A stretch of 31,766 nucleotides of DNA. Source: Gemmatimonadota bacterium. GTDB taxonomy: Bacteria; Gemmatimonadota; Gemmatimonadetes; Gemmatimonadales; GWC2-71-9. Positions 7,462 through 31,766 of the stretch are shown piece by piece. Made by a program: the position numbers and the translations under genes. Each line of letters begins with the position of its first letter. Positions within the stretch are counted from its first letter, which is position 1. The notes below the pieces were generated by a model, which saw only the letters and a list, made by a program, of their open reading frames with translations, searched no databases and was not told the origin of the DNA. Location: contig JAZDCZ010000433.1 of the NCBI GenBank assembly GCA_036679605.1, positions 1-31,766 of the forward strand, given 5' to 3'.

Positions 7462-7573
7462 TGTGTCACTTCATGTGTCGATTGGGCCGGTTTTTGTGTC
7501 GATTCAAAGCGGCAGATTCCGGCATGATCGGTAGGGAAGTACGGCAGATCGTGCGTCCTACCAAGGTTTATCC
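7462..7573 (+). repeat. Junction J1 arm (112 bp)
   Basis: Identical to 22105-22217 and 31654-31766 except for one missing G; contains three TGTGTC(ACT/GAT) direct repeats. Confidence 0.95.
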
Positions 7574-7605
7574 AGTTATTTACCGGAAATCGTGCCGTTC
7601 TCGCT

Positions 7606-7617
7606 CCGGCGCCCCGA
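7606..7617 (+). other. Residual tRNA-Pro 3' end at J1
   Basis: CCGGCGCCCCGA followed by TAA matches the end of the longer fragment at 22244-22259 with one G missing. Confidence 0.6.
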
Positions 7618-7664
7618 TAAGCGAAGAGCCTATGGACGCAGTGCGTTCATGGGCTCTTTGCTTA
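7618..7664. terminator. Long hairpin, probable intrinsic terminator after the tRNA remnant
   Basis: TAAGCGAAGAGCCTATGGACGCA-G-TGCGTTCATGGGCTCTTTGCTTA pairs using G-U; same position as the hairpin at 22257-22304. Confidence 0.7.
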
Positions 7665-7674
7665 ATTCGGTACC

Positions 7675-8326
7675 GGATGCGAACCGCAGGTTCGAGCCGA
7701 GCGGCCACCCAGCTCTCGAAGATCCCCCAGCTCTCCCGCGAGACGAGCGAGAATCGCGTCAGCGATTCGCAGCTCCATCCGGGCGAGGCCTTTCCGCTCG
7801 AGCCCCAGCCGAAAACAGACCGCTGGGCGTGGCAACTCCACTCCTCGACCTCAATGCCGAGCACTCGTAGCACCGCTTCGCGAGCCGCTGAGAAGTCGGG
7901 TAGCCTCCAGGCTCGAGCGTTTCGGTCCCATCGACGTTGCGGAAGCGTCCGTGCCTGGGCCACGAGCGTCGGTTCGTACGGGACGCCTACTAGGATCATG
8001 CCCCCCGAAGCGAACGCAGGTACTGATTCGGTTTGGGGAGCCATAACGGAGCTTGGCACCCTTTGGTGGGCGCACCCATGCTTGAATCGGACACCCGGTC
8101 CGGGGCCATGTATGGCGCGCGTGTATTTGCTGCGGTAAGTTGGCCTCGCCGTCTTACCACGCGGGCCGGTGCGGCAGGGGTTGCGGGAGGGTGAGATTCC
8201 GAAGCAGATCCGACGAAAGGTGTTTACACGCCCTCCTTCACAGGCATCCGCCATTCATTCCTTCTCCCGCCGGTCTCAGATCTCCGGAGGGTGTGTGGGT
8301 TCGTGTACGGCGGAGATTCGCCCGTT
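7675..8326 (+). repeat. Conserved island left arm plus integron platform, copy B
   Basis: Highly similar to 22316-22852 apart from the segment after CAACTCCA; its first part also matches 15285-15414. Confidence 0.9.
7841..8044 (-). pseudogene. Truncated 5' end of a putative integron-associated recombinase with HARP-like N-terminal domain
   Basis: MAPQTESVPAFASGGMILVGVPYEPTLVAQARTLPQRRWDRNARAWRLPD fits the HARP-like pattern PY...l....r.lP.RrWd...r.W.lP. It is divergent from attI, in the position intI normally occupies. No catalytic domain remains. Confidence 0.55.
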
Positions 8327-8330
8327 ATAA
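8245..8330 (+). other. attI-like site of array B (core GTTATAA at 8324-8330)
   Basis: Homology with island D stops at this GTTA. GTTATAAGAC is the exact reverse complement of GTCTTATAAC at the start of the first attC (9365-9374). Confidence 0.85.
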
Positions 8331-8450
8331 GACATGTCTCAGAAAGGGTGATTGTCGCGGGTGGAAGGCGGATCCATGAGGCCGAACAGTGCGGGAGTGC
8401 TTTTCAACTCTGCGGTGGTGGTACCCACGAAGTGAGGCGATTCACAAACA

Positions 8451-9335
8451 ATGGCTGAAGCACCCGAAGACGGCCTCTACGTTGGGTCTCACCAGTTCAC
8501 ATTCTCCGAGAAAAACTGGAGGGAATCAGGCAGGGAGTTCTTGAGGTTCTTGTCCGGGGAGCTCAGCGCGTTCGCAGCGACGGCGCTGGGGCTCTGGGGG
8601 CTGGCAGGTGTCTTGGCAGCGGCGACGAATGAGAGCGTGCCAATTGAACGTCTAGCAACTCCGGTCCTACTTGCCGCCCTCGCGGTAGCGGTTTACCGGG
8701 CGTATCGGGCGAGGGACGCCCACGTGCCTGAGGCGCTCGCCTCGGAGAACTCTACGGTCCACCGGATCTTTCGGCGTCAGCGGTGTGGCTGGAATGCTGC
8801 GCTTGCGCGGGCGATGCTAGTTGACCGCATTGACGTTACGGAGGCGACCCTGCAGCGAATCAAGCTGGGGGCTGAGTATATCTCGCATCGTCGTGTGGAA
8901 CGAGAAGAGTACCTGGACTGGCTCAAGACCCGACCGGAGTCCATGCAGCGGCTCGTTCGTGCTGCCAGAGTGCTCGTTACAGAGATCTTGCCAGGGGTGA
9001 TCGGTCGCACGACTGGAGAGGCGGATCTGGCGGACTTGAAGAACGAAATCGACGCACTGGCAAGAGTGTATGGCTCTGCGCGGGATCTTGAGATCGAGTG
9101 CTTCCGCCTTGTGCCGCCCGAAGAGTTCGCTGCAATCCATGAGATGACCCATGGCTGGACGGACACCATCCGAAAGAGCGTACGAGAGTTCTGTGAAATT
9201 CTGGAGAACCTGGAGGCTGTCGGTAGGAAGCGACTCCTCAAAGGAGATGTTCCGTCACCGAACTTCCGCATCACTGTGGGCGCACCCGAGAACATCGAAG
9301 AGTTCAACAGGCAGTTAGAAGCATTCGCAGGCTAG
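8451..9335 (+). CDS. Cassette B1: membrane protein, two N-terminal TM helices and a helical domain
   Basis: 294-aa ORF filling the space between attI and attC B1; two hydrophobic stretches near the N-terminus. Confidence 0.8.
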   Translation: MAEAPEDGLYVGSHQFTFSEKNWRESGREFLRFLSGELSAFAATALGLWGLAGVLAAATNESVPIERLATPVLLAALAVAVYRAYRARDAHVPEALASENSTVHRIFRRQRCGWNAALARAMLVDRIDVTEATLQRIKLGAEYISHRRVEREEYLDWLKTRPESMQRLVRAARVLVTEILPGVIGRTTGEADLADLKNEIDALARVYGSARDLEIECFRLVPPEEFAAIHEMTHGWTDTIRKSVREFCEILENLEAVGRKRLLKGDVPSPNFRITVGAPENIEEFNRQLEAFAG

Positions 9336-9367
9336 GATCGAATTGGCGGATGTGGGTTCGACACGTC

Positions 9368-9462
9368 TTATAACAAACAATTGCCGGCTCCGTTCGCTTC
9401 GCTCACTTCGACGAGCACGGCTCGCTGAAGGCGAGCCGCGCCGGCAACTTAGAATGTTTTGT
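9368..9462 (+). repeat. attC-like site B1 (short family, 95 bp)
   Basis: TTATAAC...TTGCCGGC...GCCGGCAA...GTTTTGT. Confidence 0.85.
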
Positions 9463-9472
9463 AACACCACCC

Positions 9473-9946
9473 TTGGGAGACGCATTGAGACGTGACCAGA
9501 TGCATTCGATCGCACTCCAGTTTCGGCGAGCCATCGAGCAGGTTGGACCAAGGGACACAGTCTTTGCAGCGATGAAAAGCTTTCCCAAGGGGTGCTGCAA
9601 GGACACATCGTTCCTCTTGGCTCGGATTCTGAACCTAAGGTATGGAGTGCACGAGTCTCGATATGTATATGGCACGCGCGCAGCGGAGAGTCTAGAGTGG
9701 TATACACACGGCTGGCTCGAGACTGCGGGCTACATCCTGGATGTGACTGCTGATCAGTTCGAGGAGGTCAGTGAAAAGGTTATGGTGACGCCGATAGGAG
9801 AGAGCGAGTTTCACGATTCGTGGTCCGGGCAGTGCTCCTCCGCGTACCCGCGGTTCTGGAGCTTCAATGACGAAGCCGGGCCCCAATTCGAAGAGACTCT
9901 GGAGCTTCTGATGGCTGCGATGGCGTCTTCGCAGGTACGTGACTGA
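9473..9946 (+). CDS. Cassette B2 gene 1: papain/transglutaminase-like protein (start may be ATG 9500)
   Basis: FPKGCCKDTS...HGWLE...ILDVTADQF gives a Cys-His-Asp triad pattern. Confidence 0.65.
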   Translation: MGDALRRDQMHSIALQFRRAIEQVGPRDTVFAAMKSFPKGCCKDTSFLLARILNLRYGVHESRYVYGTRAAESLEWYTHGWLETAGYILDVTADQFEEVSEKVMVTPIGESEFHDSWSGQCSSAYPRFWSFNDEAGPQFEETLELLMAAMASSQVRD

Positions 9947-10319
9947 CGGAGGAATCTTGGGTAACAGGCAGCTCAGCAATTCGGAACTGGACGACCTTTT
10001 CCAGCCGCTTCTGGAAGAAACCCGGGCGAGTATTCGGGAGTTGGCGGGGCCCGATAATGAACTCGCCTGGGCTCTTCGACGGAAACTCTACAAGGAACTG
10101 AGTTACGACGAACGGGGAAAGCCAACGCACCGAAAGAGGCTCAAGGCGGCTAAGCGAGATCAGCAGAATGGCCTCTGCGCGCTTTGCGGTGAGTCGCTTC
10201 CTGAGAAGGGAGCCGTGCTTGATAGGTATGAAGCAATGAGCGGCTATACGGAGGAGAATACACGGCTACTCTGCCCCATCTGTGATACGCAGGTGCAGAC
10301 GAGCCAACGGTACTCGTAG
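9939..10319 (+). CDS. Cassette B2 gene 2: HNH-like Zn-binding nuclease
   Basis: CALC...VLDR...GYTEENTRLLCPIC; overlaps the upstream gene by 8 bp. Confidence 0.7.
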   Translation: MTDGGILGNRQLSNSELDDLFQPLLEETRASIRELAGPDNELAWALRRKLYKELSYDERGKPTHRKRLKAAKRDQQNGLCALCGESLPEKGAVLDRYEAMSGYTEENTRLLCPICDTQVQTSQRYS

Positions 10320-10341
10320 AACGTGTGGTGCGGGTGGCGTC

Positions 10342-10436
10342 ACATAACAATCAGTTGCCGGCTTCGTTCACTTCGCTCACTACGGCGAGCACGGCTCGCT
10401 TAACGCGAGCCGCACTGGCAACTTAGAACGTTATGA
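10342..10436 (+). repeat. attC-like site B2 (short family)
   Basis: ACATAAC...GTTGCCGG...CTGGCAAC...GTTATGA; near-identical to 26105-26198. Confidence 0.9.
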
Positions 10437-10458
10437 GACGTGCCTAGAGGGGACTGGG

Positions 10459-10879
10459 ATGCCTGAAGTCGAAACGAAGTTTGGTCGAATCGCGCTTCGT
10501 GCACATGAGCTAGCATCTGCGGGATTGCATGCTCTCGATGCCTGGCACGGAAGCCTTCAGGAGAAGTTACGCTGGGAGGCAGTTGGAAACCCAGACCCGT
10601 CACAGCTGCCCCAAGTGGGCCTTCAGCATCTTGTGCCATGAAGGACATCTCAAGGCAATCGAATCCGGAGGCTGCCCTAAGGCGGAGACCAGCAGTTCAG
10701 CCGCCTATGCGATCAGGGGACTGAGGCAGTTGCTGAAGGAGCCGTGGCTGGCACGGAATAGAAGAGCGCTTAAGAGCCGCGTGTTTGGTGACCGCGGCGA
10801 TCCGGACCATCGAACGCCTAATGGTGAGATGGAGGTTCTCCTCGCACTTTGGAAGGCGGGGGCCATGAGTCGAGGCTGA
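10459..10879 (+). pseudogene. Cassette B3 gene 1: frameshifted DUF6979-like gene
   Basis: ORF 10459 (KFGRIAL...DAW) continues in another frame after about 10546 (SCPKWAFSILCHEG...NGEMEVLLALW), consistent with a single +1 base. Confidence 0.55.
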
Positions 10880-10931
10880 TGTGATCAAGTGGCCGGCAGG
10901 TGAGCAGTTGAATTGAGATCGTGGAGGCAAG

Positions 10932-11162
10932 ATGGGAAGTCGCGAAGATCGGGAGACAACGAGTCGGGGATACGTAAATCGGAATCGCCAGACCAACGTC
11001 CGTGCGACGGATCTCCCCGGGAATGATCATCTGCAAAGGATCTATGTCCTCAAATGCCAGGACTGCGGAAACAAGTATGGAGCTAATGGCTCAGACGTCT
11101 TTCAGCGGAAGTGCCCAGAGTGCCAAGGCGGTGCTCCAGGGCTGCCGTTCGATGGCCCCTAG
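10932..11162 (+). CDS. Cassette B3 gene 2: small Zn-ribbon protein
   Basis: GGAGG RBS; CQDC...YGANGSD...CPECQGG. Confidence 0.75.
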   Translation: MGSREDRETTSRGYVNRNRQTNVRATDLPGNDHLQRIYVLKCQDCGNKYGANGSDVFQRKCPECQGGAPGLPFDGP

Positions 11163-11204
11163 GTGAGCAGGATCGCAAGCCAGGAGATTCGACCGCGGCA
11201 CATC

Positions 11205-11356
11205 TCATAACACTGGGCCTCCGGCTCGGGCCGCCACATGCGACCCTCGACCCAACCGGCCGCGACCGGGACGGTGCTGGTGACTGGAAGTGATAGATCA
11301 ACGAAAGTGAAGCAAGAACAGAAGCAGGGCCGGTTCGGAGGCCCTGAACGTTATCT
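11205..11356 (+). repeat. attC-like site B3 (long family, 152 bp)
   Basis: TCATAAC-ACT-GGGCCTCCG...CGGAGGCCC-TGAAC-GTTATCT; closely similar to 27311-27462. Confidence 0.9.
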
Positions 11357-11411
11357 GACACACGCACCCCCAGGGATGAGAATCCACTTTAGCCTAAGAG
11401 AAGGCAGAACC

Positions 11412-12032
11412 ATGGATGCTGATGTTCCCTACATGCCGTCGATCAAGAATTTGCCTGCGATCTTGGACTCCATTCAAAACGCCGGAGCCCCTGATGCCTT
11501 CGGTTTGGACTTCCTCCAGGACCTAGGCTACACCAGCTCGAATGACCGCTCCGTAATCAAGGTCCTGAAATATCTTGGCTTGCTCGACGCGTCAGGGAAG
11601 CCGCAAGCCGCGTACCGGGAGTTCATGGATCACACCAAGGCCAAGTCAGTGCTTGCTGGCCGGCTTTGCCACGCGTACGACGATCTTTTTCGCGCCGACA
11701 AGGAAGCGCAGTCCCGGACCACAGAGAAACTCAAAGGCTGGTTCAAGACCAAGACCGGAGTGGGCGACGCGGTAGCAACCAAGATGGCGTCAACGTTCAG
11801 GGCGCTAGCAGCCTATGCTGACTTCACCGACGTCCCGGCAGTTGAGCCGAAACTCGAAGCGGAGCTTCCTAAAGAGGAGACGACGGAGGAGGAAGAACCG
11901 AAGCGTGAGACACCACTCCCGAATCAAAGCCTCGGGCTGACCTTCCGAGTGGAGGTCAACCTCCCGGACACGACGAATGTGGATACCTACCGGGCGATAT
12001 TTCGCGCGCTCCGCGAGGAACTCCTGTCGTGA
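11412..12032 (+). CDS. Cassette B4 gene 1: DUF5343-like protein
   Basis: PYMPSIKNLPAILDSIQNAGAPDAFGLDFLQDLGYTSSNDR...LKYLGLLD. The longer ORF from 11238 runs through the attC, so ATG 11412 is preferred. Confidence 0.75.
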   Translation: MDADVPYMPSIKNLPAILDSIQNAGAPDAFGLDFLQDLGYTSSNDRSVIKVLKYLGLLDASGKPQAAYREFMDHTKAKSVLAGRLCHAYDDLFRADKEAQSRTTEKLKGWFKTKTGVGDAVATKMASTFRALAAYADFTDVPAVEPKLEAELPKEETTEEEEPKRETPLPNQSLGLTFRVEVNLPDTTNVDTYRAIFRALREELLS

Positions 12033-12604
12033 GGCGGCAGATAAAGCAGTTTGTGTTCTCCGGGCTCCTAGCGCGCCATGCCGTACAGGACATGGAAGCC
12101 GTGGGCCTTCTTCACCATGCCAACGTCACCGTCACTGAGCGCGGGGACGGCGACCTCTACGCATCGGTGCAGGAGCGCATTCGCACTGGCTCCATTGAGA
12201 TGCAGCGCGTTTATCGCGTGCTGTTTGTCCTAGAGAACATGGTGAGAGGGCTCATCAGCTCGCGCCTTCAGGAGGCTGATGGCGCAGATTGGTTCGAGAA
12301 GCGTGCTGGTGCGCCCATGAAGCGCAACGTTGAGAAGCGGCGTGAAGCGGAAGCGAAGAACCAGTGGCATACCGGCCGGAACAAGGAGCCAATCTATTAT
12401 CTCGACTTCGGCGACCTATCGAAGCTCCTGGTCACCCATTGGTCTGAGTTCGAGGACCTTCTCCCTAGCCAAACCTGGGTGCAAAGCCGCCTTGAGGATG
12501 CCGAACGAAGTCGGAACGTGATCGCCCACACGAATCTCCTCTCCTCAGACGAGGTGTCCCGTCTTGAGATGTACCTTCGTGACTGGATTAAGCAGATAGG
12601 CTGA
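12029..12604 (+). CDS. Cassette B4 gene 2: Swt1-like HEPN RNase candidate
   Basis: LFVLENMVR, YLDFGDLSKL and the HEPN RxxxxH motif RNVIAH; GTGA overlap with the upstream gene. Confidence 0.8.
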   Translation: MRRQIKQFVFSGLLARHAVQDMEAVGLLHHANVTVTERGDGDLYASVQERIRTGSIEMQRVYRVLFVLENMVRGLISSRLQEADGADWFEKRAGAPMKRNVEKRREAEAKNQWHTGRNKEPIYYLDFGDLSKLLVTHWSEFEDLLPSQTWVQSRLEDAERSRNVIAHTNLLSSDEVSRLEMYLRDWIKQIG

Positions 12605-12662
12605 CGATGTACTCCACGGAGCACGAGGTGCTCGGCATTCGGAATGCAGAGGGCTGTGAGTC

Positions 12663-13466
12663 ATGACCGATTTTTCACCAAGAACAGTGCTGGCCGCTGT
12701 TGAGGCGTTTGGGTTCAACACTAACGCTCAGGTCGAGAACCTCGCCCTGGAGTATGGCCTAGATGGTATCATGGGTGATGGAGGGATCGCCAAGAAGGAG
12801 TCTCGTTTGGCCAGACACTTGGTTGAGCACCCTGAACTAACGGGCTACGCCGGCGTGAGCTTGGTCTACGAATTGATCGAGAAGGCGATCGACGCACGGT
12901 GCCAACCCGATTGGGGAGGCCCACACGATCCGGTTGAGGTCGTGCCGAAGCTCGTCAACTCGTTGGAGCAGGACGGCTTCATCGTCGAGGACTACAAACT
13001 GGTGCGGATGTTGCCGGACGCGGTTCCGGTTGCGGCCGCGCAAGACGAACTCACACGCCTCCTCGAGAAGCACGGTTTCGCCACGGCGGCCGGGCACCTT
13101 GGCCAAGCGTTGACTGCCCATGCCAGGGGTGATTGGGCGGCCGCCAATGCCCAATTGAGGACGTTCGTTGAGGAGCTGTTCGATAGAATTGCTGATCATC
13201 TCTCAGGTGGGGAAAGCGGAGCTTTTGGCTCGAGTCACGAGCGGCGGGAGTGGCTTGCGACGTGCGGCCCACCGTTCTTCGATCCAGAATTGAACGAGTG
13301 GGATCCCGGGAAGAGTGGCGGGTTCCTACAGGGTTTCTGGCGGCGCCTGCATCCGGAGGGGTCTCACCCCGGCCTATCGGACGAAGCGGATTCGAGTCTC
13401 CGGCTTCATCTTGTGCTGATCACGACAGAGCATTTCATGGGTCGTTTCGATCAGCGCGTGACGTAG
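12663..13466 (+). CDS. Cassette B4 gene 3: abortive-infection-like protein (Abi_C/HEPN-like C-terminus)
   Basis: HLGQAL...GDWAAANAQLRTFVEELF...RLHPEGSHPG helical pattern resembling Abi C-terminal domains. Confidence 0.55.
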   Translation: MTDFSPRTVLAAVEAFGFNTNAQVENLALEYGLDGIMGDGGIAKKESRLARHLVEHPELTGYAGVSLVYELIEKAIDARCQPDWGGPHDPVEVVPKLVNSLEQDGFIVEDYKLVRMLPDAVPVAAAQDELTRLLEKHGFATAAGHLGQALTAHARGDWAAANAQLRTFVEELFDRIADHLSGGESGAFGSSHERREWLATCGPPFFDPELNEWDPGKSGGFLQGFWRRLHPEGSHPGLSDEADSSLRLHLVLITTEHFMGRFDQRVT

Positions 13467-13469
13467 GAG

Positions 13470-13665
13470 GGTACTGTCAACTTGCGCCCGACAGCGTCAG
13501 ACTCTGCGGATGAGAACGAACTCAACGAACTACCGCGGCCATCGGTTTCCGCCTGAAATCATCAGCAACGGTGTCTGGTTGTACTGCCGATTCTGCTTGA
13601 GCTTCCGTGACGTGGAGGAACTCCTCGGGAAGCGTGGAATTCTTGTCACCTAGGAGACCGTCAGA
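13470..13665 (+). mobile_element. IS6-family remnant (left end and transposase 5' pseudogene)
   Basis: GGTACTGTCAACTT end, then ATG 13510: YRGHRFPPEIISNGVWLYCRFCLSFRDVEELLGKRGILVT*ETVR. Confidence 0.85.
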
Positions 13666-13787
13666 TGCGGCGCCCATGCCAACCAAGCATCGCACCAGAC
13701 CCTAGATGGGCCGGCTGCAGCACCCTATCCTTCAATCTGTCGACTCGTCAACATGCGAGATGTCACTGAGACTTTGAGGGGGGGGGA

Positions 13788-20836: not shown

Positions 20837-20837
20837 T

Positions 20838-23695: not shown

Positions 23696-23713
23696 CGGAC
23701 CGGGCACGGCTTC

Positions 23714-24105: not shown

Positions 24106-24108
24106 CCC

Positions 24109-24333: not shown

Positions 24334-24351
24334 ATCATCCGCAGCGCCGGC

Positions 24352-24501: not shown

Positions 24502-24656
24502 GAAACGGGCCTTAAGGTTGATCACGGATTGCATGAATGGTTCGATATGAATCTTGTGATGCGGTCGCGTCGCACGGCAGTTTGGATGTCCTGCGCGCAG
24601 AATCCATCTTGTAATCCGTCACTCGGACAAATGACGACGACAAAGGACAAATAGTC

Positions 24657-25859
24657 ATGTATGAGATCATCTGCCCGCACTGCAAGAAGACCTTCAAGGT
24701 TGACGAGGCTGGGTACGCGGACATCCTCAAGCAGGTTCGCGACGAAGATTTCGAGCAGCAGTTGCATGACCGGCTCGAGTTGGCCGAGCAGGACAAGCGG
24801 AATGCCGTTGAGCTCGCGGAAACCAAGGGCGCCAGCGATTTAGAGAAGGCGGCCGCCACGAAAGACGCGGAGATTCAGGAGCTGAAGGCAACGCTCAACT
24901 CCAGCGAGGTAAAGCAGAAGCTCGCGGTTACAGAGGCGGTCAATGCCGTTGAAAAGGAGCGCGATGAACTGAAGAGCGGCCTTGAGCTGGCGCAACTTGA
25001 GAAACAGCTCGTCGAGAAGTCACTCAAGGACAAGTACGAGACGCAGATCAAGGATCGTGATGACGCGATCGAGCGACTGCGGGACATGAAGGCTCGCCTG
25101 TCTACCAAGATGGTGGGCGAAACCCTCGAACAGCACTGCGAAACCGAGTTCAATCGCATTCGCGCGACGGCGTTTCCGAGTGCGTATTTCGAGAAAGACA
25201 ACGACGCCCGAACTGGGAGCAAGGGAGACTACATCTTTCGTGACTCGGATGAGGCTGGCACCGAAATCGTCTCGATCATGTTCGAGATGAAGAACGAGAG
25301 CGACGAAACAGCTACCAAGAAGAAGAACGAAGACTTTCTCAAAGAGCTCGACAAGGACCGGAATGAAAAAAGCTGCGAATATGCGGTTCTCGTTTCACTT
25401 CTTGAACCTGACAGCGAACTCTACAACTCCGGCATCGTCGATGTGTCTCACCGTTACCCGAAGATGTATGTCGTCCGACCGCAATTCTTCATCCCGATCG
25501 TTACGTTGCTGCGAAACGCGGCCAAGAACTCACTGAAGTACAAAACAGAGCTCGCGCTAGTGAAAGCACAGAACATCGATATCACGAACTTCGAGAACGA
25601 ACTCGATACGTTCAAGACTGGCTTCGCCCGGAACTACGATCTGGCGTCCAGGAAATTCAAGACCGCTATTAAGGAGATCGACAAGACCATCGACCATCTT
25701 CAGAAGACCAAAGATGCGCTGCTAGGTTCTGAAAACAATCTCCGCCTTGCCAACAACAAAGCCGCCGACCTGACCGTGAAGAAACTGACTAAGGGCAACC
25801 CCACCATGGCCGCGAAGTTCGCTGGGCTCAAGAACGATGAAGCTTCCGATTCTGAATAG
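24657..25859 (+). CDS. Cassette D3: DUF2130 family coiled-coil protein
   Basis: EIICPHC N-terminus, coiled coil, [31 protein letters not shown]. Confidence 0.85.
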
Positions 25860-26104
25860 GCTTTGCTCTCACCACCGCCGAGGAGTGTGACGGCTAGCGA
25901 GGGCTTGCGGCTGACACCAGCCGGGCGGGCGTTCCTGGGTCTGGTACCTTCTGGCCGTGAACTTTTGTGGCTTCGGCGAAGCCCGCCAGCCCTGGCGGGC
26001 GGAGCTGAAGCCCGATCCGTCAGCGCCTAGACACAGGAGCCGGGATGTCCTCGTAGATCCTGCTTGGGTATCAACGGGCTGATGAGCCCAACGGGGCCCG
26101 CTCC

Positions 26105-26198
26105 CGATAACAATCAGTTGCCGGCTTCGTTCGCTTCGCTCACTACGGCCATCACGGCTCGCATGCGCGAGCCGCGACGGCAACTTAGAACGTTAAGC
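26105..26198 (+). repeat. attC-like site D3 (short family)
   Basis: CGATAAC-AATC-AGTTGCCG...CGGCAACT-TAGAAC-GTTAAGC. Confidence 0.9.
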
Positions 26199-26223
26199 GG
26201 AATAGCCTCAAGACGAGCGACCG

Positions 26224-27300
26224 ATGGGCGAATTCAGATTTCACCGCCTAGAGCGATGGAAGCAGGGAGGCTCCAGAGACCGAATGGAGTTGGGGATTCC
26301 ACTGCCGATCTCTAGCGGCGGCCTGGTCCTCCGCTGGTGCCCGAATGAAGAGTGCCAACCGCGCAGGTTTCAATTGGGTGACGTCGCCGAGGGAGTGGAG
26401 GTGCCGGGATACGATGGCGCCGTTCAGCGCCGAAATCCGGGGGAACAGGTCTGTACGTGCCCATATTGCGGACTAGACAAAGAGGATGATGCCTTCATCG
26501 CACCCGAGGATGTCCAAGCGGCGATGGACAAGGTAATGTGGGCCGTCGAGGAGGATGTTGGCCAGTGGCTAGGTGATTTGACCAAGGACTTCAACCGCAG
26601 CGTGAATCGGGGAGGGAGCAACTTCCTCAAGATCGAAATGACCAGCTTCCACCGGCCGACCCCTGAACCCCGCGCTTGGCGAGAGGATCTTCTTCGCGTC
26701 CTCGAATGTCATAGGTGCGCACGTCGTTATGGGGTATACGCGATCGGGTTTTTCTGTCCCGATTGCGGAGCGGCCAACCTCGCGAGGCACTTCGAGAGAG
26801 AGGCCGCTCTTATCGTCGGTCAGATCGATCTTGCCGAGCAGATCGCGGAACAGGGACAGCGAGAGCTCGCATTTCGCATTCTGGGAAACGCTCATGAGGA
26901 TGTGGTCACGGGGTTCGAGACTTACTTGAAGAGCACGTTTCGTCTGGTGCTTCGCACGCGCCCAGGGGCATCGGATCTCTTCCAGAAGAAGGAACTCAGG
27001 GGAAACCCGTTTCAGAGTCTCGCGCGCGCATCCGGACTCTTCGCCAGGCTCAACGTTCCTCTCTTCGACGCCGTCGATGCGGAGGGCCTCGAGCAACTGC
27101 GTAAGGAATTTGAGAAGCGTCATGTCGTAGGACACAACCTTGGCCTCGCCGATGAGAAGTACGCCGAGGTGGCCGCCGATGTCGAGGTCGGAGAGACGGT
27201 CCCCCTCCTCGGAAGTGAGATAGAGGAGTTCGCTCGGACCTGTGTCACCGTGCTTGAAACGCTGGAGCAGGAGGTGCCGGAGCTACATCCAACGCCGTAA
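26224..27300 (+). CDS. Cassette D4: Zn-finger protein with HEPN-like C-terminus
   Basis: CPNEEC, CPYC, CHRC and CPDC; VTGFETYLK; RxxxxH motif RHVVGHN. Confidence 0.7.
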   Translation: MGEFRFHRLERWKQGGSRDRMELGIPLPISSGGLVLRWCPNEECQPRRFQLGDVAEGVEVPGYDGAVQRRNPGEQVCTCPYCGLDKEDDAFIAPEDVQAAMDKVMWAVEEDVGQWLGDLTKDFNRSVNRGGSNFLKIEMTSFHRPTPEPRAWREDLLRVLECHRCARRYGVYAIGFFCPDCGAANLARHFEREAALIVGQIDLAEQIAEQGQRELAFRILGNAHEDVVTGFETYLKSTFRLVLRTRPGASDLFQKKELRGNPFQSLARASGLFARLNVPLFDAVDAEGLEQLRKEFEKRHVVGHNLGLADEKYAEVAADVEVGETVPLLGSEIEEFARTCVTVLETLEQEVPELHPTP

Positions 27301-27310
27301 CAGCTACTCC

Positions 27311-27462
27311 GCTTAACACTGGGCCTCCGGCTCGGGCCGCCATAGGCGACCCTCGACCCAACCGGCCGTGACGGGACGGTGCAGTCGAGCGGAAGTGATA
27401 GATCAACCGAAGTGAAGTGAACGAACGAAGGTGGGCCGGTTCGGAGGCCCTAAACGTTATGT
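27311..27462 (+). repeat. attC-like site D4 (long family)
   Basis: GCTTAAC-ACT-GGGCCTCCG...CGGAGGCCC-TAAAC-GTTATGT. Confidence 0.9.
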
Positions 27463-27503
27463 GCAATGGCTTGGACGCGCTGATATGAGAATTCAGTATC
27501 GGA

Positions 27504-27533
27504 TTGACCAAGTGTAGCCAGATGGCTACACTT
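27504..27533 (+). promoter_or_regulatory. TA promoter with overlapping operator
   Basis: TTGACC-17 nt-TACACT; perfect palindrome AAGTGTAGCCA-GA-TGGCTACACTT. ATG lies 5 nt after the -10 box, so the transcript is probably leaderless. Confidence 0.8.
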
Positions 27534-27537
27534 GAGT

Positions 27538-27827
27538 ATGATCGAGATCCGCAAGACTGAGTTCTTCGCGCGGTGGCTCGACGACCTCCGTGTCTCACGT
27601 ACGTTGGCAGAGAGGGGATTGAGCGGCTCGCCGCTGGCAATCCAGGGGATGTCAGGCCCGTTAGTGAGGGTGTCTCGGAGCTACGAATCGATTACGGACC
27701 CGGATACCGAGTCTATTTCAAACGGTATGGGCGGGAGTTGATCATTCTGCTTGTGGGAGGGGACAAGAGTTCGCAGACCAAGGACATCAAGGCTGCACTC
27801 CGCCTCGCTCGCAGTCTCTCGGAGTAA
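27538..27827 (+). pseudogene. Cassette D5: RelE/HigB-like addiction-module killer, frameshifted by an IS-end remnant
   Basis: MIEIRKTEFFARWLDDLR in one frame and IERLAAGNPGDVRPVSEGVSELRIDYGPGYRVYF...GGDKSSQ in another, joined by foreign sequence at about 27592-27616. Confidence 0.8.
27586..27616 (-). repeat. Solo IS terminal-repeat remnant inside the toxin gene
   Basis: Inverted copy of 7249-7279 (30/31). Confidence 0.65.
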
Positions 27828-28480
27828 TGAGCATGAGAACGACCACGACGACCCGATACGACGTTGCTGAACATCTCAGGACGCCCGAGGAAATGGCTGC
27901 GTACCTAGAGGCATGCCTCGAAGAAGCGGATGGAGACGCGGCATTTGTGGCAAAAGGCCTTGGAGACATTGCTAGGGCAAAAGGAATGACTCAGGTGGCA
28001 CGAGATGCTGGACTGTCTCGAGAGAGCCTGTACAAGGCTTTGTCCGGCGAGCGCAGCCCGGGCTTCGACACAATCCTAAAGGTTGTGCGCGCCCTTGGAC
28101 TCAAGCTACACGCCGCGCAATGGTCAGGTGGTAGAGGGATGGATTCTGCCCCGACGCGCTTGGGCGCGGAGGGGTCTTATCGAGCAGGACAACTAGGAGG
28201 AAGTATGGGAACGAAGAAAGTTGGCTATAACAAGTCTGGAATCGACAAGCTCCCAGACGACAAGCCCGTGCTGTACCGCATTAAGACCCAAAGTGGTAAT
28301 GACAACTATGTAGGCGTTGCGAAGCGAGGCCGAGTGCAAGATCGCATAACCGAACATCTGGGTGAGATCCCAGGAGCCAAGGTGTCGATCGAGCAGTTCA
28401 GCAGCATTGCTGACGCTAGGGCAAAGGAAGCAAATGTGATCAAGCGGCAGCAACCGAAATACAACAAGCAGGGCAAGTAG
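27827..28480 (+). CDS. Cassette D5: HTH addiction-module antidote reading in frame into a small GIY-YIG-like protein
   Basis: YDVAEHLRTPEEMAAYL...GMTQVARDAGLSRESLYKALSG; no stop before a second module with its own GGAGG and ATG at 28205 (PVLYRI...NYVGVAKR...EH...PKYN). Confidence 0.8.
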   Translation: MSMRTTTTTRYDVAEHLRTPEEMAAYLEACLEEADGDAAFVAKGLGDIARAKGMTQVARDAGLSRESLYKALSGERSPGFDTILKVVRALGLKLHAAQWSGGRGMDSAPTRLGAEGSYRAGQLGGSMGTKKVGYNKSGIDKLPDDKPVLYRIKTQSGNDNYVGVAKRGRVQDRITEHLGEIPGAKVSIEQFSSIADARAKEANVIKRQQPKYNKQGK

Positions 28481-28539
28481 CGGCGATCGACCGTAGCCAC
28501 CCGGCGGCGCTCACAACGGGGGCTGCCCGGGGCCACCGC

Positions 28540-28694
28540 ACATAACACTGGGCCTCCGGCTCGGGTCGCTTTCGGCGCCCCTCGACCCAACCGGCCCAAC
28601 GTGGTGGGCTTCGGTCGAACGAACGAGGCCTGAGATCTGAATGAGAACAGGGAAACGAAGCAGAGGGCCGGTTCGGAGGCCCTGATCGTTATCA
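28540..28694 (+). repeat. attC-like site D5 (long family)
   Basis: ACATAAC-ACT-GGGCCTCCG...CGGAGGCCC-TGATC-GTTATCA. Confidence 0.9.
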
Positions 28695-28730
28695 GAAGGC
28701 CCGCAGATCGAAGATCCGGTGGAGGATCGA

Positions 28731-29000
28731 CTACAAATGCGACAGGAGCTGGTCGTAATCGGAATGGGAGCCGATCCAGAACCAGACCCAGGTGTCTTCA
28801 TCGCGGATCGCGAGCGCGCGGTAGCCGAGAGAGACACGCGCAGAGAAGATGGATCGGGATGCGTGGACTTGCTTGAAGTTGAGGCCGGGATGAGACGGAT
28901 CTTCAGCGAACGTCGCGTAGGCCTGTCGAGCACGGACCTGGATGCGCTGTGGGAGGACCTTGAAGCACTTCCTAAAGGCGGAAGTGGTCGTAGACCTCAC
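28731..29000 (-). CDS. Cassette D6: RelE/ParE-like toxin (antisense orientation)
   Basis: DPSHPGLNFKQV...SARVSLGYRALA...WFWIGSHSDYD. Confidence 0.8.
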   Translation of the reverse strand: MRSTTTSAFRKCFKVLPQRIQVRARQAYATFAEDPSHPGLNFKQVHASRSIFSARVSLGYRALAIRDEDTWVWFWIGSHSDYDQLLSHL

Positions 29001-29215
29001 AGCTTGTCAGGATCGAGCTGCTTTGTGTCCCCGGCACGCTGTTCCGCCAGAGCGGCATCTGCCAACCCAGCTAGGTCGTCCTGGGACTCCGCTAGCGTGG
29101 CGTCCCACTTCTGCTCGGCCTTGATCTCCTCAAGGAGAGCGGAGGCGAGCGCGTCCTGCTCCGGCGCGGGGAGCTTCGAAGCCTGCTCAAAGGCTTTCTG
29201 AAGAAGTTCAGTCAT
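28997..29215 (-). CDS. Cassette D6: small acidic antitoxin candidate
   Basis: MTELLQKAFEQASKLPAPEQDALASALLEEI...WD; overlaps the toxin start by 4 bp. Confidence 0.75.
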   Translation of the reverse strand: MTELLQKAFEQASKLPAPEQDALASALLEEIKAEQKWDATLAESQDDLAGLADAALAEQRAGDTKQLDPDKL

Positions 29216-29327
29216 GTACGGAGTAGCCCCGAAGATTCTGAGTGATGTAGTTGATACCCGTGGGCTCGCGGATGGATTCATGATGGGCTGGATACAGACG
29301 ATGAAGCAAGCCTCACCGCAGGCCAAC

Positions 29328-29447
29328 TGATAACACGGGGCCTCCCGCTCGGGCCGCCACAGGCGGCCCATCGGGGCGGGTTTCGGTCGGCGAAGGTGTT
29401 TGAACGAACGAAACAGAGCGCCGGTTCGGAGTCCCTGAACGTTAACT
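29328..29447 (+). repeat. attC-like site D6 (long family variant, 120 bp)
   Basis: TGATAAC-ACG-GGGCCTCC...GGAGTCCC-TGAAC-GTTAACT. Confidence 0.85.
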
Positions 29448-29471
29448 GCAATACTCCCTCGTGGGTTAGCG

Positions 29472-29527
29472 TTGACCCCGAGCCGCCATCGTTTCCATAT
29501 TGGTAATCAGTGTTGCCAACATGGGAA
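29472..29527 (+). promoter_or_regulatory. higBA promoter with two operator palindromes
   Basis: TTGACC at 29472; TTTCCA-TAT-TGGTAA (29492-29506) and TTGCCA-ACA-TGGGAA (29513-29527). Confidence 0.55.
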
Positions 29528-29548
29528 CAAAGTGATTGAGGAGAGCGG

Positions 29549-29845
29549 TTGCGGATTATCTCCCGGAAAGCCCTGCGCGAGTTCGGTGAGAGGCACGCGG
29601 ATGCGAAGGAACCGCTCGACGCATGGTATCGGATACTGAAGGGGCGAGAGTATCAATCTCCGCATGAACTTCGAACGGACTTCCCGACGGCCAGCTTCCT
29701 GGGTGCTCGCCGAACGGTCTTCAACGTTGGCGGAAACAAGTACCGGTTGGTGGTCGACATTCGGTACGACCTCGGGCGAGTGTACGTACGAGATGTGTTG
29801 ACCCATGCGGAATACGACCGAAAGTCGATTGATGGTGCGCTATGA
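29549..29845 (+). CDS. higB: Cassette D7: HigB-family toxin
   Basis: MRIISRKALREF...VFNVGGNKYRLV...VLTHAEYD. Confidence 0.9.
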   Translation: MRIISRKALREFGERHADAKEPLDAWYRILKGREYQSPHELRTDFPTASFLGARRTVFNVGGNKYRLVVDIRYDLGRVYVRDVLTHAEYDRKSIDGAL

Positions 29846-29865
29846 CTGCGCGAGGAGGAACGATC

Positions 29866-30255
29866 ATGACCACAGCTCTCCTGGACTTCTCGAAGCCACA
29901 CGTCCTGAAGAACGACACGGAGTACGAAGCCGCGATCGCTGAAATCGAGCGCCTTCTGGATGAAGAGGTCGAGCCTGCGAGTGAGGGCTATGATCGACTC
30001 GAGTTCCTTTCCGTATTGGTCGAGCACTACGAGGAAGCCCAGTACCCGATGGGGACAGTCACGCCCCAACAGTCCGTGACGTTCATGCTTGAGCAGAAGG
30101 GACTGAATCGGTCCGACCTCGACGAGGTCATGGGTGGCAAGAGTCGCGTCTCAGACTTTCTCAATGGCAAGCGCGATCTCTCGAAGTCGCAGATTGCGGG
30201 ACTGAGGCGGATGCTCGGAATACCAGCAGATATTTTGCTCGGAATTGGGGAGTAG
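29866..30255 (+). CDS. higA: Cassette D7: HigA-family HTH antitoxin (alternative start 29842)
   Basis: EYEAAIAEIERL...LSVLVEHYE...KSRVSDFLNGKRDLS; GAGGAGG RBS. Confidence 0.88.
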   Translation: MTTALLDFSKPHVLKNDTEYEAAIAEIERLLDEEVEPASEGYDRLEFLSVLVEHYEEAQYPMGTVTPQQSVTFMLEQKGLNRSDLDEVMGGKSRVSDFLNGKRDLSKSQIAGLRRMLGIPADILLGIGE

Positions 30256-30276
30256 TTCGCCCATCGGTCGTACTGC

Positions 30277-30299
30277 ACTTAACAATGGGTCTCCGGCTC
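30277..30299 (+). repeat. Truncated attC-like site D7 (5' part only)
   Basis: ACTTAAC-AAT-GGGTCTCCGGCTC matches the long-family start and is complementary to the cassette start at 29441; the rest is missing. Confidence 0.75.
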
Positions 30300-30313
30300 T
30301 TAGCGCCCAACCA

Positions 30314-31513
30314 TCACCGTACCTCCCACACCTCGATGTACTCCTCGTCGAGGCGGGTGTGGAGGCGCACAGCCACACGGCCGTCCCGGATGTCCAACAC
30401 TTCGTTGAATCGCAGTATCCCCCAGAACTCCGTCGGCAACCAGACCCGTCCGTAGGGCATTCCAGTGGAGTCGAACACGACCCACAGTCTCCGCTTTTGA
30501 CCCGGGCGCTTTCCGCCTGCCACCCACACCCGACCCTGGTCGTCCATGGAGAGTGCGCCCAACGGTGGCACCGACGTCCTTACGGGGCCCGTACGCCACG
30601 CCTCGATGGCAAGTGGGGTGTCCATCGGGATCTTCGCCAGCAGGACTTCCCGGTACTCCTGGATCTCGTCGGGGGTCGCTGGGTCGGGGGCCGCAGTCCC
30701 CCAAAGAACCCACTCGAGGCGTCCGGCCAGGTCGAACTTCCGAACGTCGATTGCGTCCGTCGATCCGATCACCACGTGGCCGCCTCGTCCCGCCGCAACC
30801 GCCATTCTGGAGAACACGATCGGTACGAAGAGCCTTCCTTCGGGTACGGTCGCAAAAGCCCGCTCCGTCGAAGGCCAGAGGCCGAGTGTATCGAGGGATC
30901 CCGAACGCAGGATGCGAAGCAGGGGCGTGGTATCCCTCACCTCTCCGCTTGAGCCAAAGTGCCCGAACCTCCCGTGTACCGCCAGCACCGTGTCACGGGC
31001 GATGGTCAGCGGCTGGACACTAGATAGGGCATCTCGATTATCGAGCCGCTGCGAGTGCTCGAACTGAAGTTCGGGTCCGAGCCTCGTGAGGCGCCGTAGG
31101 GCCTGATCGTAGACCCAGACCCCGGCGGAATCGGCCTGTAGCCACTTCGGATCTATGTACTCGCCGGGGCCTTCGCCCGGGCGGCCGATCCTCCGAATCT
31201 CAGCTCCCTTTGAATCGAGGAGTACGAGCTCGGAGTTGCCTTCACTGGCCAGCAAGAGGGAGCCGTCGGCCAGGAAGGCGCCATCCCCGATACGGGACAG
31301 AACCGTCTCGTCTGGGTCGGTACGGAAGATCAACTTTGCCGTGAGCAACTGGGCCTGAACCTCCTCGAGCTTGCCGAAACTCACGACCCGAACTCCCGCC
31401 GAGTCAGTGAGCTCGACCTCGGAGAGGGGTTCGCTCCTGCCGTCAGCACCACCACAGGCCGCCGATACGCAGGAGACGAGTGCCAAGCCGAGTAGCGTGC
31501 GGTGCTTCACCAT
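30314..31513 (-). CDS. Lipoprotein, 6-bladed beta-propeller-like
   Basis: Lipobox SAAC; DSAGVRVV; IGRPGEGPGEY; DDQGRVWV; LDEEYIEVW. Confidence 0.8.
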   Translation of the reverse strand: MVKHRTLLGLALVSCVSAACGGADGRSEPLSEVELTDSAGVRVVSFGKLEEVQAQLLTAKLIFRTDPDETVLSRIGDGAFLADGSLLLASEGNSELVLLDSKGAEIRRIGRPGEGPGEYIDPKWLQADSAGVWVYDQALRRLTRLGPELQFEHSQRLDNRDALSSVQPLTIARDTVLAVHGRFGHFGSSGEVRDTTPLLRILRSGSLDTLGLWPSTERAFATVPEGRLFVPIVFSRMAVAAGRGGHVVIGSTDAIDVRKFDLAGRLEWVLWGTAAPDPATPDEIQEYREVLLAKIPMDTPLAIEAWRTGPVRTSVPPLGALSMDDQGRVWVAGGKRPGQKRRLWVVFDSTGMPYGRVWLPTEFWGILRFNEVLDIRDGRVAVRLHTRLDEEYIEVWEVR

Positions 31514-31653
31514 CTGGTTCGCGTCTCATCGAGGGGGCGGGCGGGCACATCCCAGTCGGCATGCCTTCGGCCCGACTTGGCCCAAGCTGTGCGCTTAAGA
31601 TGCAGTTCGCACCGGAGCAGCGCGAGCCGGTGCGGTACAGGGGTCACTGGATG

Positions 31654-31766
31654 TGTGTCACTTCATGTGTCGATTGGGCCGGTTTTTGTGTCGATTCAAA
31701 GCGGCAGATTCCGGCATGATCGGTAGGGAAGTACGGCAGATCGTGCGTCCTACCAAGGGTTTATCC
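31654..31766 (+). repeat. Junction J4 arm (113 bp, runs to window end)
   Basis: Identical to 22105-22217; the window stops where the J1 and J3 copies diverge. Confidence 0.95.

Follow-up and report, generated by a model that had tools for sequence, protein, structure and literature searches.

The question raised by this locus is how parts of a tRNA-Pro gene came to be repeated along one contig, at four junctions (J1 to J4) spaced 7.7, 6.9 and 9.5 kb apart, with two quite different arrays of gene cassettes among the DNA that they delimit. The window, by which we mean the whole stretch of 31,766 nt analysed here, is the entire contig C372 of a marine Gemmatimonadota MAG, and its right end falls within a repeated segment, the arm; a second contig of the same bin, C427, begins 12 nt into the arm in which C372 stops, and the two together amount to 56 kb. 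We lean towards reading the region as a CIME-like accumulation of decayed integrative islands at a tRNA-Pro gene or close to it, with islands B and D headed by integron-like platforms that are themselves headless. The features are as follows, with positions in the window and strand.

7461–7608 (+): J1 arm, the 114-nt repeat with an extension of ~34–42 nt; contains direct repeats of a TGTGTCGATT-type motif
7609–7617 (+): tRNA-Pro 3' vestige, the last 9 nt (10-nt match to the tRNA-Pro end), followed by a hairpin at ~7626–7656
7673–7840 (+): module i (~7673–7785) and its tail of ~55 nt, ending in ...CAACTCCA
7842–8044 (−): what is left of a HARP-domain, Xer-like tyrosine recombinase gene, a 5' stump of ~67 codons whose likely ATG is at 8044
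8045–8327 (+): region upstream of the stump, up to the attI-like boundary with GTTA at 8324–8327
8328–11358 (+): cassette array B, three cassettes; attC at 9369–9464, 10343–10438 and 11206–11358
11359–15145 (+): non-cassette cargo of island B, with a PDC-M34A/B pair (DUF5343 and HEPN_Swt1; ORFs 11238–12604)
15146–15416 (+): J2, with a variant arm (15146–15243), a tRNA-Pro fragment (15244–15278), then the 3' two-thirds of module i and the tail
15417–22103 (no strand assigned): cargo of island C, with ORFs of 301, 700 and 319 aa on the − strand and no family match
22104–22484 (+): J3, with the arm (22104–22217), a tRNA-Pro(CGG) 3' fragment (22217–22256), a hairpin with T-run (22268–22293), and module i with its tail (22314–22484)
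22485–22853 (−): two recombinase pieces of J3, separated by an internal deletion, and the attI-like end with GTTA at 22850–22853
22854–29449 (+): cassette array D, six attC at 23715–23810, 24353–24503, 26106–26200, 27312–27464, 28541–28696 and 29329–29449
29450–31652 (no strand assigned): right-end cargo of island D, with an NHL/beta-propeller-like ORF (30314–31513, −) that is 92% identical to a C427 copy
31653–31766 (+): J4 arm, cut by the contig end; C427 starts within the same arm

The coordinates of the repeats bear out the number and spacing of the junctions given in a preliminary description of this DNA, and the repeats and tRNA-Pro fragments all share one orientation. The 114-nt arm is present at 7461–7574, 22104–22217 and 31653–31766 in copies that are 95–100% identical, and the extension of the J1 copy is common to C427 (103–137) and the contigs L025, L027, L028, L030 and L037. 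The layout reported earlier for both J1 and J3, an arm followed by a tRNA-Pro 3' fragment, a terminator and a shared downstream arm, holds for J3, including its T-run hairpin; at J1, however, the 42-nt extension precedes a tRNA vestige of a mere 9 nt, and the hairpin behind it fails the terminator scan. J2 is a reduced version, as had been stated, but its arm is a different variant, and its portion of module i closes with the tRNA 3' end once more; J4 does break off after the arm and lacks the rest of the junction because the contig ends there. The J3 fragment agrees with the host's gene, as had been supposed: it corresponds to positions 35–74 of the bin's tRNA-Pro(CGG), on contig C173, from the anticodon onward, with 36 of 40 bases matching, and is 95–98% identical to the tRNA-Pro genes of relatives. 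The junctions have the look of attP/attR scars left by an element that targets the tRNA-Pro anticodon loop, and the direct repeats in the arm resemble arm-type integrase sites.

The proposal that islands entered tRNA-Pro genes at the anticodon loop gains from other contigs, where the arm recurs beside tRNA 3' fragments and once borders housekeeping genes. One genome contig and five metagenome contigs carry the arm at 73–87% identity; in L028, the arm, the extension, a tRNA-Pro(GGG) 3' fragment and a terminator abut FGAM-synthase-like, M28 peptidase and amidase genes, an arrangement that fits the attR layout of an element targeting the anticodon loop. The same layout of arm plus fragment is seen in G654 and G275, the latter a closed genome in which the copies lie far from any tRNA-Pro gene and none of the three Phage_integrase matches found genome-wide is near them. 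The preliminary description had looked to the assembly and its relatives for further arms, and this was answered in part: the bin itself holds six matches (three each on C372 and C427) and 6 of the 70 sampled genomes of the sister family f7 have the arm, but f1, the family of the bin itself, has it in none of 166 genomes, and in the 40 nearest relatives, the whole junction is matched by its tRNA part only. The arm, module, recombinase and attC types are all found in f7, and C372 is possibly mis-binned.

C427 contributes four further decayed junctions, in which deletions lie at the microhomologies GGTTCGA and GGGTC; across the two contigs, six of the eight att-like junctions carry deletions, the exceptions being J3 and the cut-off J4, and they therefore look like fossils. 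An intact tRNA-Pro gene and an integrase had been expected upstream, and mobilisation in trans had been proposed. Yet ARAGORN predicts no tRNA gene anywhere in the window, none of the bin's contigs links tRNA-Pro to the leader or the arm, the Phage_integrase domain is absent from the 31 ORFs of the window and the 22 of C427 that were scanned, neither contig has a TIGR02249 match, and no integrase family could be linked to the arm. The contig may simply stop before the intact gene. Excised circles fared no better: among the 15 joints listed of 53, those at the arms agree with C427 variants and none is a clean island-deletion or circle joint, contigs being unable to show rare forms. With no integrase, intact head tRNA or excision joint found and with deletions in most junctions, mobilisation in trans is no more than putative.

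What had been described as a single shared downstream arm proved to consist of three parts: a structured repeat of ~113 nt that is linked to tRNA genes (module i), the 5' stump of the recombinase gene and an attI-like end at GTTA. That B and D carry homologous platforms with unrelated cassettes was seen correctly, although the islands do not possess an integron of their own, as the platforms are headless, with a recombinase 5' stump and an attI-like end only. Each platform is made up of the first ~67 recombinase codons, the upstream region and the attI-like end, followed by three or six cassettes with attC of the classical kind. The attC sites, nine in two classes (island B has three, island D six), are the sole sequence that the two arrays have in common; they are imperfect inverted repeats with R''-L''...L'-R' pairing and a GTT end, one per cassette, and 4 of the 12 predicted stem pairs show compensatory changes between the two classes. 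A search of the island B cargo at E≤1 with filters off gave no additional attC. The stump has no catalytic domain; at J1, it is 78% identical in DNA to G511:C85 and 65% in protein over 115 residues (E 4e-45), and 53% to a homolog in G590. In G511:C85, the platform forms the 5' part of a recombinase gene of 387 aa; a cassette and a class-2 attC come behind that gene. All four copies (J1, J3, G511 and G295) are conserved as far as GTTA and no further, and both the position and this abrupt end fit a candidate attI. No sigma-70-like promoter was found in the region upstream of the stump (8045–8327).

In related genomes of one Gemmatimonadota family, the recombinases to which the stump belongs stand at the head of long attC arrays, reaching ~44 kb. 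Judged by the IntI-specific region, the stump does not come from an IntI gene: the insertion is absent in all 27 readable loci of the 30 examined, the spacing from GKGxKDR to HxxRH is 59–63 residues in the family against 100 in the bin's two true IntI, and the family scores 115–205 bits against TIGR02249, whose cut-off is 265. The RKHRHY residues are conserved among intact members. At the N terminus, three of three members match HARP (PF07443) at 15–18 bits, below the cut-off of 25; a profile of 14 members matches only PDB 4o66 (E 6.7e-4), and Foldseek, with a model whose core has a pLDDT of 87–94, places 4o66 first at E 0.046 and XPB N-terminal domains next, none reaching 0.001. HARP, known from SMARCAL1, is a fold through which the structure of DNA is recognised. 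Two true intI genes are present elsewhere in the bin, on contigs of their own and with attI unrelated to these platforms, and the attC types of the window (model R1) are not found beside them. In G483, the platform comes after tRNA-Leu, as it comes after a tRNA-Pro fragment in the window. It is possible, if doubtful, that we are looking at a second kind of integron, with an Xer-like recombinase that never had the IntI-specific domain and has a HARP-like one at its N terminus instead and with a platform that is tRNA-proximal within the tRNA-targeted islands of this lineage; if so, whole cassette platforms would move as island cargo, and one enzyme may even serve both reactions.

The history that we have in mind for the pile-up of islands starts from the order of parts at a junction, which would be the right arm of the left-hand island, the 3' part of tRNA-Pro from the anticodon loop, and the left end of the next island. 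A tyrosine integrase crossing over in the anticodon loop is the probable agent, and related elements would have inserted successively, by accretion, into the regenerated tRNA gene; they may later have lost the integrase or may never have possessed one, and several junctions would then have been trimmed by deletion at short homologies, probably in that order of events. Cassette shuffling would have gone its own way in each array, presumably either while the recombinase gene was still whole or through a recombinase supplied in trans. Alternatively, a composite locus may have been copied by segmental duplication or unequal crossing-over and then have diverged, with no successive site-specific insertions, which we think rather unlikely. 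J1 and J3 are indeed alike in architecture from end to end: the leader at 7668–7790 is 94% identical to 22309–22431 (and 67% to 15241–15363), and 8006–8327 matches 22535–22853 at 89% by BLAST. Likewise, C372:30286–31703 and C427:14944–16357 are 92% identical, and module i occurs in tandem copies beside tRNA genes of other genomes, so such DNA amplifies locally. However, J1 and J3 differ in the hairpin that separates fragment from module, the two being unrelated in spite of conserved sequence on either side, the arms of J3 and J4 are 100% identical against 83–89% for the leaders, the stumps of J1 and J3 are truncated at different points, and the cargo between junctions is unrelated save for that one 1.4-kb piece. 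The unrelated hairpins and the contrast between arms and leaders thus fit separate insertions better than one duplication, and they are to be expected under accretion because the fragment and left end at each internal junction would come from a different arrival.

Module i deserves a closer look, as it invites an explanation by function. In the sister family, 17 of 23 loci have it immediately behind an intact tRNA-Pro or tRNA-Cys gene, and the shared junction sequence therefore need not all be element DNA. All 41 distinct copies keep its hairpin, despite 20 different sequences, and further pairs covary; the arm, too, is conserved across genera (73–87%) and its surroundings are not. The module might, then, act as a structured RNA made in one transcript with the tRNA, or as a recombination site in folded single-stranded form, the arms might be maintained protein-binding sites, and the repeats as a whole might be under selection. 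We consider this improbable: no Rfam family matches module i at its gathering score, RtT RNA (RF00391), with 14.4 bits (E 9.2), falling short of its threshold of 45, and several of the copies in the window are truncated, which functional selection would oppose.

The order of the islands comes from the original MAG assembly alone because the Logan contigs break at every junction of the array. We give the least credence to a partial artefact, in which exact 114-bp repeats and shared attC sites would have misordered an assembly of several strains or organisms, and the contig would have been mis-binned: C372 stops and C427 starts in an arm, none of the Logan contigs listed bridges J1, J2 or J3, the junction parts are found only in another family, and the bin measures 6.7 Mb (434 contigs, 95 tRNA genes and 6.3% contamination) against the 2–4.6 Mb of relatives, but the unique parts of B, C and D lie at an equal, flat depth of ~13–16x in a run with 94% of the sampled words, every junction has unique flanks and private variants, and every feature, arm, fragment, stump and attC included, is confirmed in independent contigs elsewhere.

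A pile-up of decayed islands has its closest counterparts among elements already described. In the accretion of CIMEs at the 3' end of a target gene, of the ICESt1 type in Streptococcus thermophilus, att sites are kept without integration genes, in tandem with later arrivals that enter the regenerated target (PMC5704250). Decayed elements without integration genes, att-like sites and tandem stacking are common to both; here, however, neither an integrase nor a working partner element is present, damage affects most of the att-like junctions, and mobility, in cis or in trans, is putative. Islander recognises the ends of islands by displaced 3' tDNA fragments that share an orientation, and an anticodon-centred crossover is one of two common sublocations; each island requires an integrase gene and a fragment, together with an intact tDNA, and the tandems given number 125 of two or more islands and 4 of three or more (PMC4383910). 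Our array is like these in its presumed crossover point and in its displaced fragments in tRNA orientation, present at J3 and J2 and, with only 9 nt, at J1, whereas the intact head tRNA and an integrase for each island are missing. Salmonella genomic island 1 (SGI1) is, to our knowledge, not targeted to a tRNA gene. It is an integrative mobilizable island with an integron and can integrate in tandem (PMC2297512). Cassette shuffling on an island is common to SGI1 and our locus, but SGI1 encodes an integrase itself and contains a class 1 integron that is complete, while our islands lack an integrase and bear a headless integron-like platform of a non-canonical type. CALINs have at least two attC and no nearby integron integrase; 15 of 279 come with an intI pseudogene, and loss of the integrase is one proposed origin (Cury et al. 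2016, PMC4889954). The arrays of three and six attC are of this kind, with the difference that the stump belongs to a non-IntI, Xer-like family with a HARP-like N-terminal domain; of the integrase with an IntI-specific region that marks a complete integron, there is only the stump in its place. With canonical IntI (TIGR02249, with the IntI-specific domain near patch III), the family shares a tyrosine recombinase beside an attI-like end and a folded attC array, and it differs in its sub-cut-off scores, shorter motif spacing and extra N-terminal HARP-like domain. In Escherichia coli, 178-bp repeats after tyrT yield RtT RNA (Rfam RF00391); like module i, those repeats stand in tandem just behind a tRNA gene and close every unit with a copy of the 3' end of that tRNA, but the sequences are unrelated and module i has a conserved fold of its own. 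The arrangement had not been recognised as a described one, yet tandem tDNA islands, CIME accretion, SGI1 and CALINs beside intI pseudogenes have all been published, and with stacked islands, islands with integrons and CALINs already described, the tRNA-Pro array is a variant of what is known.

The four junctions that delimit islands B, C and D (J1–J4) combine a 114-nt repeat, the arm, with remnants of tRNA-Pro and a conserved leader, which includes a repeat, module i, discussed below.

Junction features of the window
7461, 22104 and 31653: arm, three copies, 95–100% identical (repeat search)
7668, 15241 and 22309: starts of the leader copies (repeat search)
7673–7785, 22314–22426 and 15283–15362: module i, about 113 nt
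8006–8327 and 22535–22853: block of 322 bp, 89% identical between the copies (BLAST)
15244–15278: second tRNA-Pro fragment, at J2, with a variant arm in front
22217–22256: tRNA-Pro fragment at J3

The J3 fragment corresponds to positions 35–74 of the bin's own tRNA-Pro(CGG), from the anticodon onward, with 36 of 40 bases identical, and is 95–98% identical to the tRNA-Pro genes of relatives; the match to the host tRNA that the preliminary description had assumed is thus real. The same description gave both J1 and J3 a 3′ fragment, which holds for the 40 nt at J3 but not for J1, where just the last 9 nt of tRNA-Pro are left, preceded by a 42-nt arm extension. J4 is indeed cut after the arm, as the contig end falls there. 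The "shared downstream arm" exists as shared sequence but is no single arm, being composed of module i, the stump of a recombinase gene and an attI-like end. A second contig of the bin (C427, 24 kb) begins 12 nt inside the arm and contains four further junctions (1–263, about 7680–7864, 16307–16460 and 18230–18282), all shortened by deletions at short homologies. It also carries a single attC site and 1.4 kb of sequence that matches the right end of island D at 92% identity. Counting both contigs, the structure therefore has no fewer than eight junctions over 56 kb or more. Both J2 and the beginning of C427 show an in-register fusion of the tRNA fragment to module i at a common GGTTCGA.

The window is a complete contig of a MAG of 6.72 Mb (434 contigs, completeness 96.5%, contamination 6.3%) and has a GC content of 59% vs. 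58% for the bin. The bin looks composite, given its 95 tRNA genes, including two very different tRNA-Pro sets, and a size of 6.7 Mb, about twice the 2–4.6 Mb of its relatives. The contig may owe its presence in the bin to mis-binning or to a recent transfer: 6 of 70 genomes sampled from the sister family f7 contain the arm vs. none of 166 genomes of the bin's own family f1, a search with arm plus leader matched 84 of 314 f7 genomes, and the window's arm, module, recombinase and attC types were found in f7 rather than f1. Among relatives from the bin's family and order, the J3 junction was matched in 31 of 41 genomes (a tally that includes the unpublished genome G015 and supports no conclusion here) through the tRNA part alone, except for one weak row of 37 nt. 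As a lineage marker, the NHL-like protein was not decisive, with best matches of only 30–38% identity that are somewhat commoner in families f6 and f7 than in f1. The arm is also present in a named record, a Gemmatimonadota MAG, and the sequencing runs containing parts of the stretch carry marine metagenome labels.

An exact 23-nt arm pattern matched six contigs, five from metagenomes and one from a genome, whose arms are 73–87% identical to those of the window over about 90–115 nt. In one fetched locus (L028), the arm with its extension precedes a tRNA-Pro(GGG) 3′ fragment starting in the anticodon loop; a terminator comes next and, beyond it, FGAM-synthase-like, M28 peptidase and amidase genes, a layout that is that of a putative attR at an island edge; the same arrangement of arm and fragment occurs in genomes G654 and G275, and in locus L027 the arm adjoins a piece of a different tRNA. 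A TGTGTCGATT-type motif occurs two or three times in the arm as a direct repeat, and further copies of it lie in a second, more degenerate arm in L028; we infer a resemblance of these repeats to arm-type integrase sites. In the closed genome G275, arm copies are far from any tRNA-Pro gene and from its three Phage_integrase matches; such copies can be old relics.

A single duplication event would account less well for the array than successive insertions: the hairpins following the fragment in J1 and J3 are unrelated while the flanks on both sides are conserved, and the arms of J3 and J4 are identical while their leaders differ by 11–17%. These two observations make insertions one after another the probable origin. 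Under such accretion, every internal junction would retain the fragment, the terminator and the left end of the right-hand element, and this retention predicts exactly the observed pattern of hairpins, arms and leaders. The window contains no tRNA gene, none of the bin contigs searched joins a tRNA-Pro gene to the leader, and the search of the window contig and C427 gave no integrase, in agreement with the islands having been called integrase-less. In the run containing 94% of the sampled words, unique sequence of islands B, C and D has a flat coverage of about 13–16×, but its contigs are interrupted at each junction, so that the island order depends on the original assembly. Among the joints listed at the arms in Logan contigs, from this run and three marine runs, there were the variants seen on C427 and not island deletions; in contigs of this kind, uncovered parts and the lack of excision joints carry no information. 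On balance, we lean slightly towards interpreting the locus as a tRNA-Pro hotspot with a CIME-like graveyard that includes two headless integron-like platforms.

A few observations concern the surroundings of the junctions. Left of J1, 399–5540 encodes a 1713-aa protein that has RHS repeats and an M23 peptidase domain, and an FG-GAP-like ORF comes after it; lying there, the protein belongs either to another island or to flanking DNA. Island C contains a direct repeat of some 510 bp (20324–21388, 69–75% identity) that corresponds to two adjacent paralogous ORFs (20303–20836 and 20802–21392) without a known family. Insertions also concentrate at tRNA genes within the bin's own family: a tRNA-Pro(TGG) has a 3′ fragment 2.4 kb further on in G017 (L020:14357–16852), a tRNA-Pro(CGG) has one 7 kb on in G007 (L023:8706–15748), and two tRNA-Arg(CCG) genes are 3.9 kb apart on contig C173 of the bin itself (L003:7876–11866).

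The recombinase stump was recognised through the full gene of a relative. The segment 7842–8336 is 78% identical to contig C85 of genome G511, where the counterpart is the 5′ end and upstream region of a gene for a 387-aa tyrosine recombinase and a cassette with a class-2 attC then follows; the window ORF at 7580–8254 on the reverse strand matches residues 5–119 of that protein (65% identity, E 4e-45), and J3 retains two smaller pieces of the gene. The bin itself yielded no full-length copy, and a blastx comparison of five junction leaders with all its six-frame ORFs gave no match beyond the window contig and C427. Conservation ends at GTTA in J1, J3, G511 and G295, with a different continuation in each, and the boundary looks like an attI recombination point. 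The attI platforms of the preliminary description are real as attI-like ends, in that conservation stops at the same place in four copies, but they are decapitated and keep a mere stump of the gene. The locus indicates that integron platforms can lose their heads and be carried along inside island graveyards, a point to bear in mind when MAGs are used to assess cassette reservoirs.

The nine attC sites fall into two classes, of about 96 nt and about 121–156 nt, and show the R″/L″/L′/R′ symmetry and unpaired spacers, with covariation of the stems between the classes. The covariance model derived from the nine (R1) matched, in the bin, these and the one on C427; with 150 of about 4190 candidates scored, it found no attC outside these two contigs, though the model is narrow and a blank result is not proof of absence. 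The arrays of islands B and D have nothing but attC sites in common.

Cargo of islands B and D
11238–12604: PDC-M34A/B pair (DUF5343 and HEPN_Swt1), PADLOC candidate defence system, E 3e-64 and 3e-61
24539–25852: cassette with a DUF2130 protein, found in other runs at 90–99% identity
29842–30255: PD-Lambda-2_B-like HTH protein, matching the first 119 of 402 positions (E 1e-32), either a fragment or a short relative
HI1420-type antitoxin

The PDC-M34A/B pair comes directly after the final attC of array B (11206–11358) and hence is counted as non-cassette cargo. Contigs from the holder run and the three marine runs join the attC sites at 11234–11360 and 23729–26108 to other cassettes, so other arrays in those communities also use attC of the window's types. 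Adding to the composite look of the bin, two canonical intI genes lie on short contigs (C73:382–1503 and C407:8658–9599) and are 88.5% identical to each other. They score 456–463 bits against TIGR02249, their attI is unrelated to the attI-like end of the window, and R1 detected none of the window's attC types beside them.

Homologs of the full recombinase (E ≤ 1e-30) occur in 117 of 314 f7 genomes. R1 attC sites adjoin the gene in 7 of 30 short and 6 of 14 longer loci. The family stands at the head of long attC arrays (L069:9503–10702, L079:3866–5044, L073:10349–11527 and G370:C1:1094822–1140893), and in four of five near-complete genomes, the main array starts within about 1–3 kb of the gene. 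Gene and array can have either relative orientation.

R1 attC matches within 1–3 kb of the recombinase gene in five near-complete genomes
G370: 27 of 30, in an array about 44 kb long
G317: 9 of 9
G265: 8 of 12
G550: 2 of 3
G474: 0 of 4

In genome G483, about 210 bp separate the 3′ end of the gene from that of a tRNA-Leu(CAA) and the cassettes are on the gene's other side, the same layout of tRNA, recombinase and cassettes as in the window. The family differs from IntI in having no IntI-specific insertion: the spacing from GKGxKDR to HxxRH is 59–63 residues in 27 of 30 loci (the motif pair being unreadable in three) vs. 100 in the bin's two true IntI, where the insertion is present, and TIGR02249 scores are 115–205 bits for a cut-off of 265. 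The N-terminus is a conserved domain of about 70 residues. Pfam HARP scores 15–18 bits in three of three members, under its cut-off of 25; a 14-member profile has the SMARCAL1 HARP domain as its sole PDB match (E 6.7e-4); and for an AlphaFold model with a core pLDDT of 87–94, Foldseek places a SMARCAL1 HARP structure first (E 0.046) and XPB N-terminal domains next, none reaching 0.001. On G511:C85 (L035:407–3814), three tyrosine recombinase genes of 323, 424 and 387 aa lie on one strand in a RIT-like manner, the one adjoining the cassettes having an apparent frameshift near its C-terminus. Such trios are not the general rule: among the 29 other short loci, L046 alone has a weaker match to the second gene and none has the third. 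A tie between arm and recombinase family could not be established either: of 17 genomes in which close homologs occur, only 4 have the arm as well, and never on the same contig.

Module i has its own distribution. The sequence at 7673–7785 recurs in f7 genomes (L034:6470–7307; L036:3534–3797 and 6832–6950; L038:5525–5794), and in 17 of the 23 loci fetched, the module is directly 3′ of an intact tRNA-Pro(CGG), tRNA-Pro(GGG) or tRNA-Cys(GCA); four of the other six run to the contig end. There are one to four copies in tandem with a period of about 150–240 bp, and every copy closes with roughly the last 10–15 nt of the tRNA next to it, starting from the T-loop. A hairpin occurs at the same place in all 41 distinct copies through 20 different sequences, and RNAalifold finds further pairs with compensatory changes; judging from this sequence pattern, module i is a structured element, either RNA or a folded single strand, and thus a candidate for a new structured RNA or single-strand recombination site. 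Rfam reports no family in the whole window at gathering thresholds and, at E ≤ 10 on 7440–8340, gives chance-level rows only (two miRNA families and RtT). The nearest analogy is provided by the 178-bp repeats after tyrT in Escherichia coli.

The general scheme, with islands stacked at a tRNA gene and some of them carrying cassette arrays, is already described and forms no new category. Islander lists 125 tandems of two or more islands at tDNA (PMC4383910), CIMEs and accretion are in print (PMC5704250), SGI1 is an island with an integron and integrates in tandem (PMC2297512), and CALINs beside intI pseudogenes were reported by Cury et al. (PMC4889954); the two-tier shuffling once proposed as an undescribed arrangement is a variant of these. 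The IntI-specific region is treated as defining by Cury et al. (PMC4889954) and by Ghaly et al., the latter also describing it as necessary for integron recombination. Searches of the IntegronFinder type define integrons through this region, and all arrays headed by the present family would therefore be filed as CALINs, most of which are without explanation in the data of Cury et al. (PMC4889954). A recombinase family without the region would explain some of them and would offer a test case for the recognition of folded attC without the IntI insertion. Our literature search, covering few subscription journals, found no paper in which a recombinase lacking the IntI domain heads attC arrays, a result that leaves room for an earlier publication. 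The non-IntI, HARP-bearing family at the head of attC arrays may be new, as may the tRNA-linked structured repeat; both points come from computation on the public genomes denoted G here. Compared with the known systems, the value of the window is in what its junctions led to rather than in the stacking of islands.
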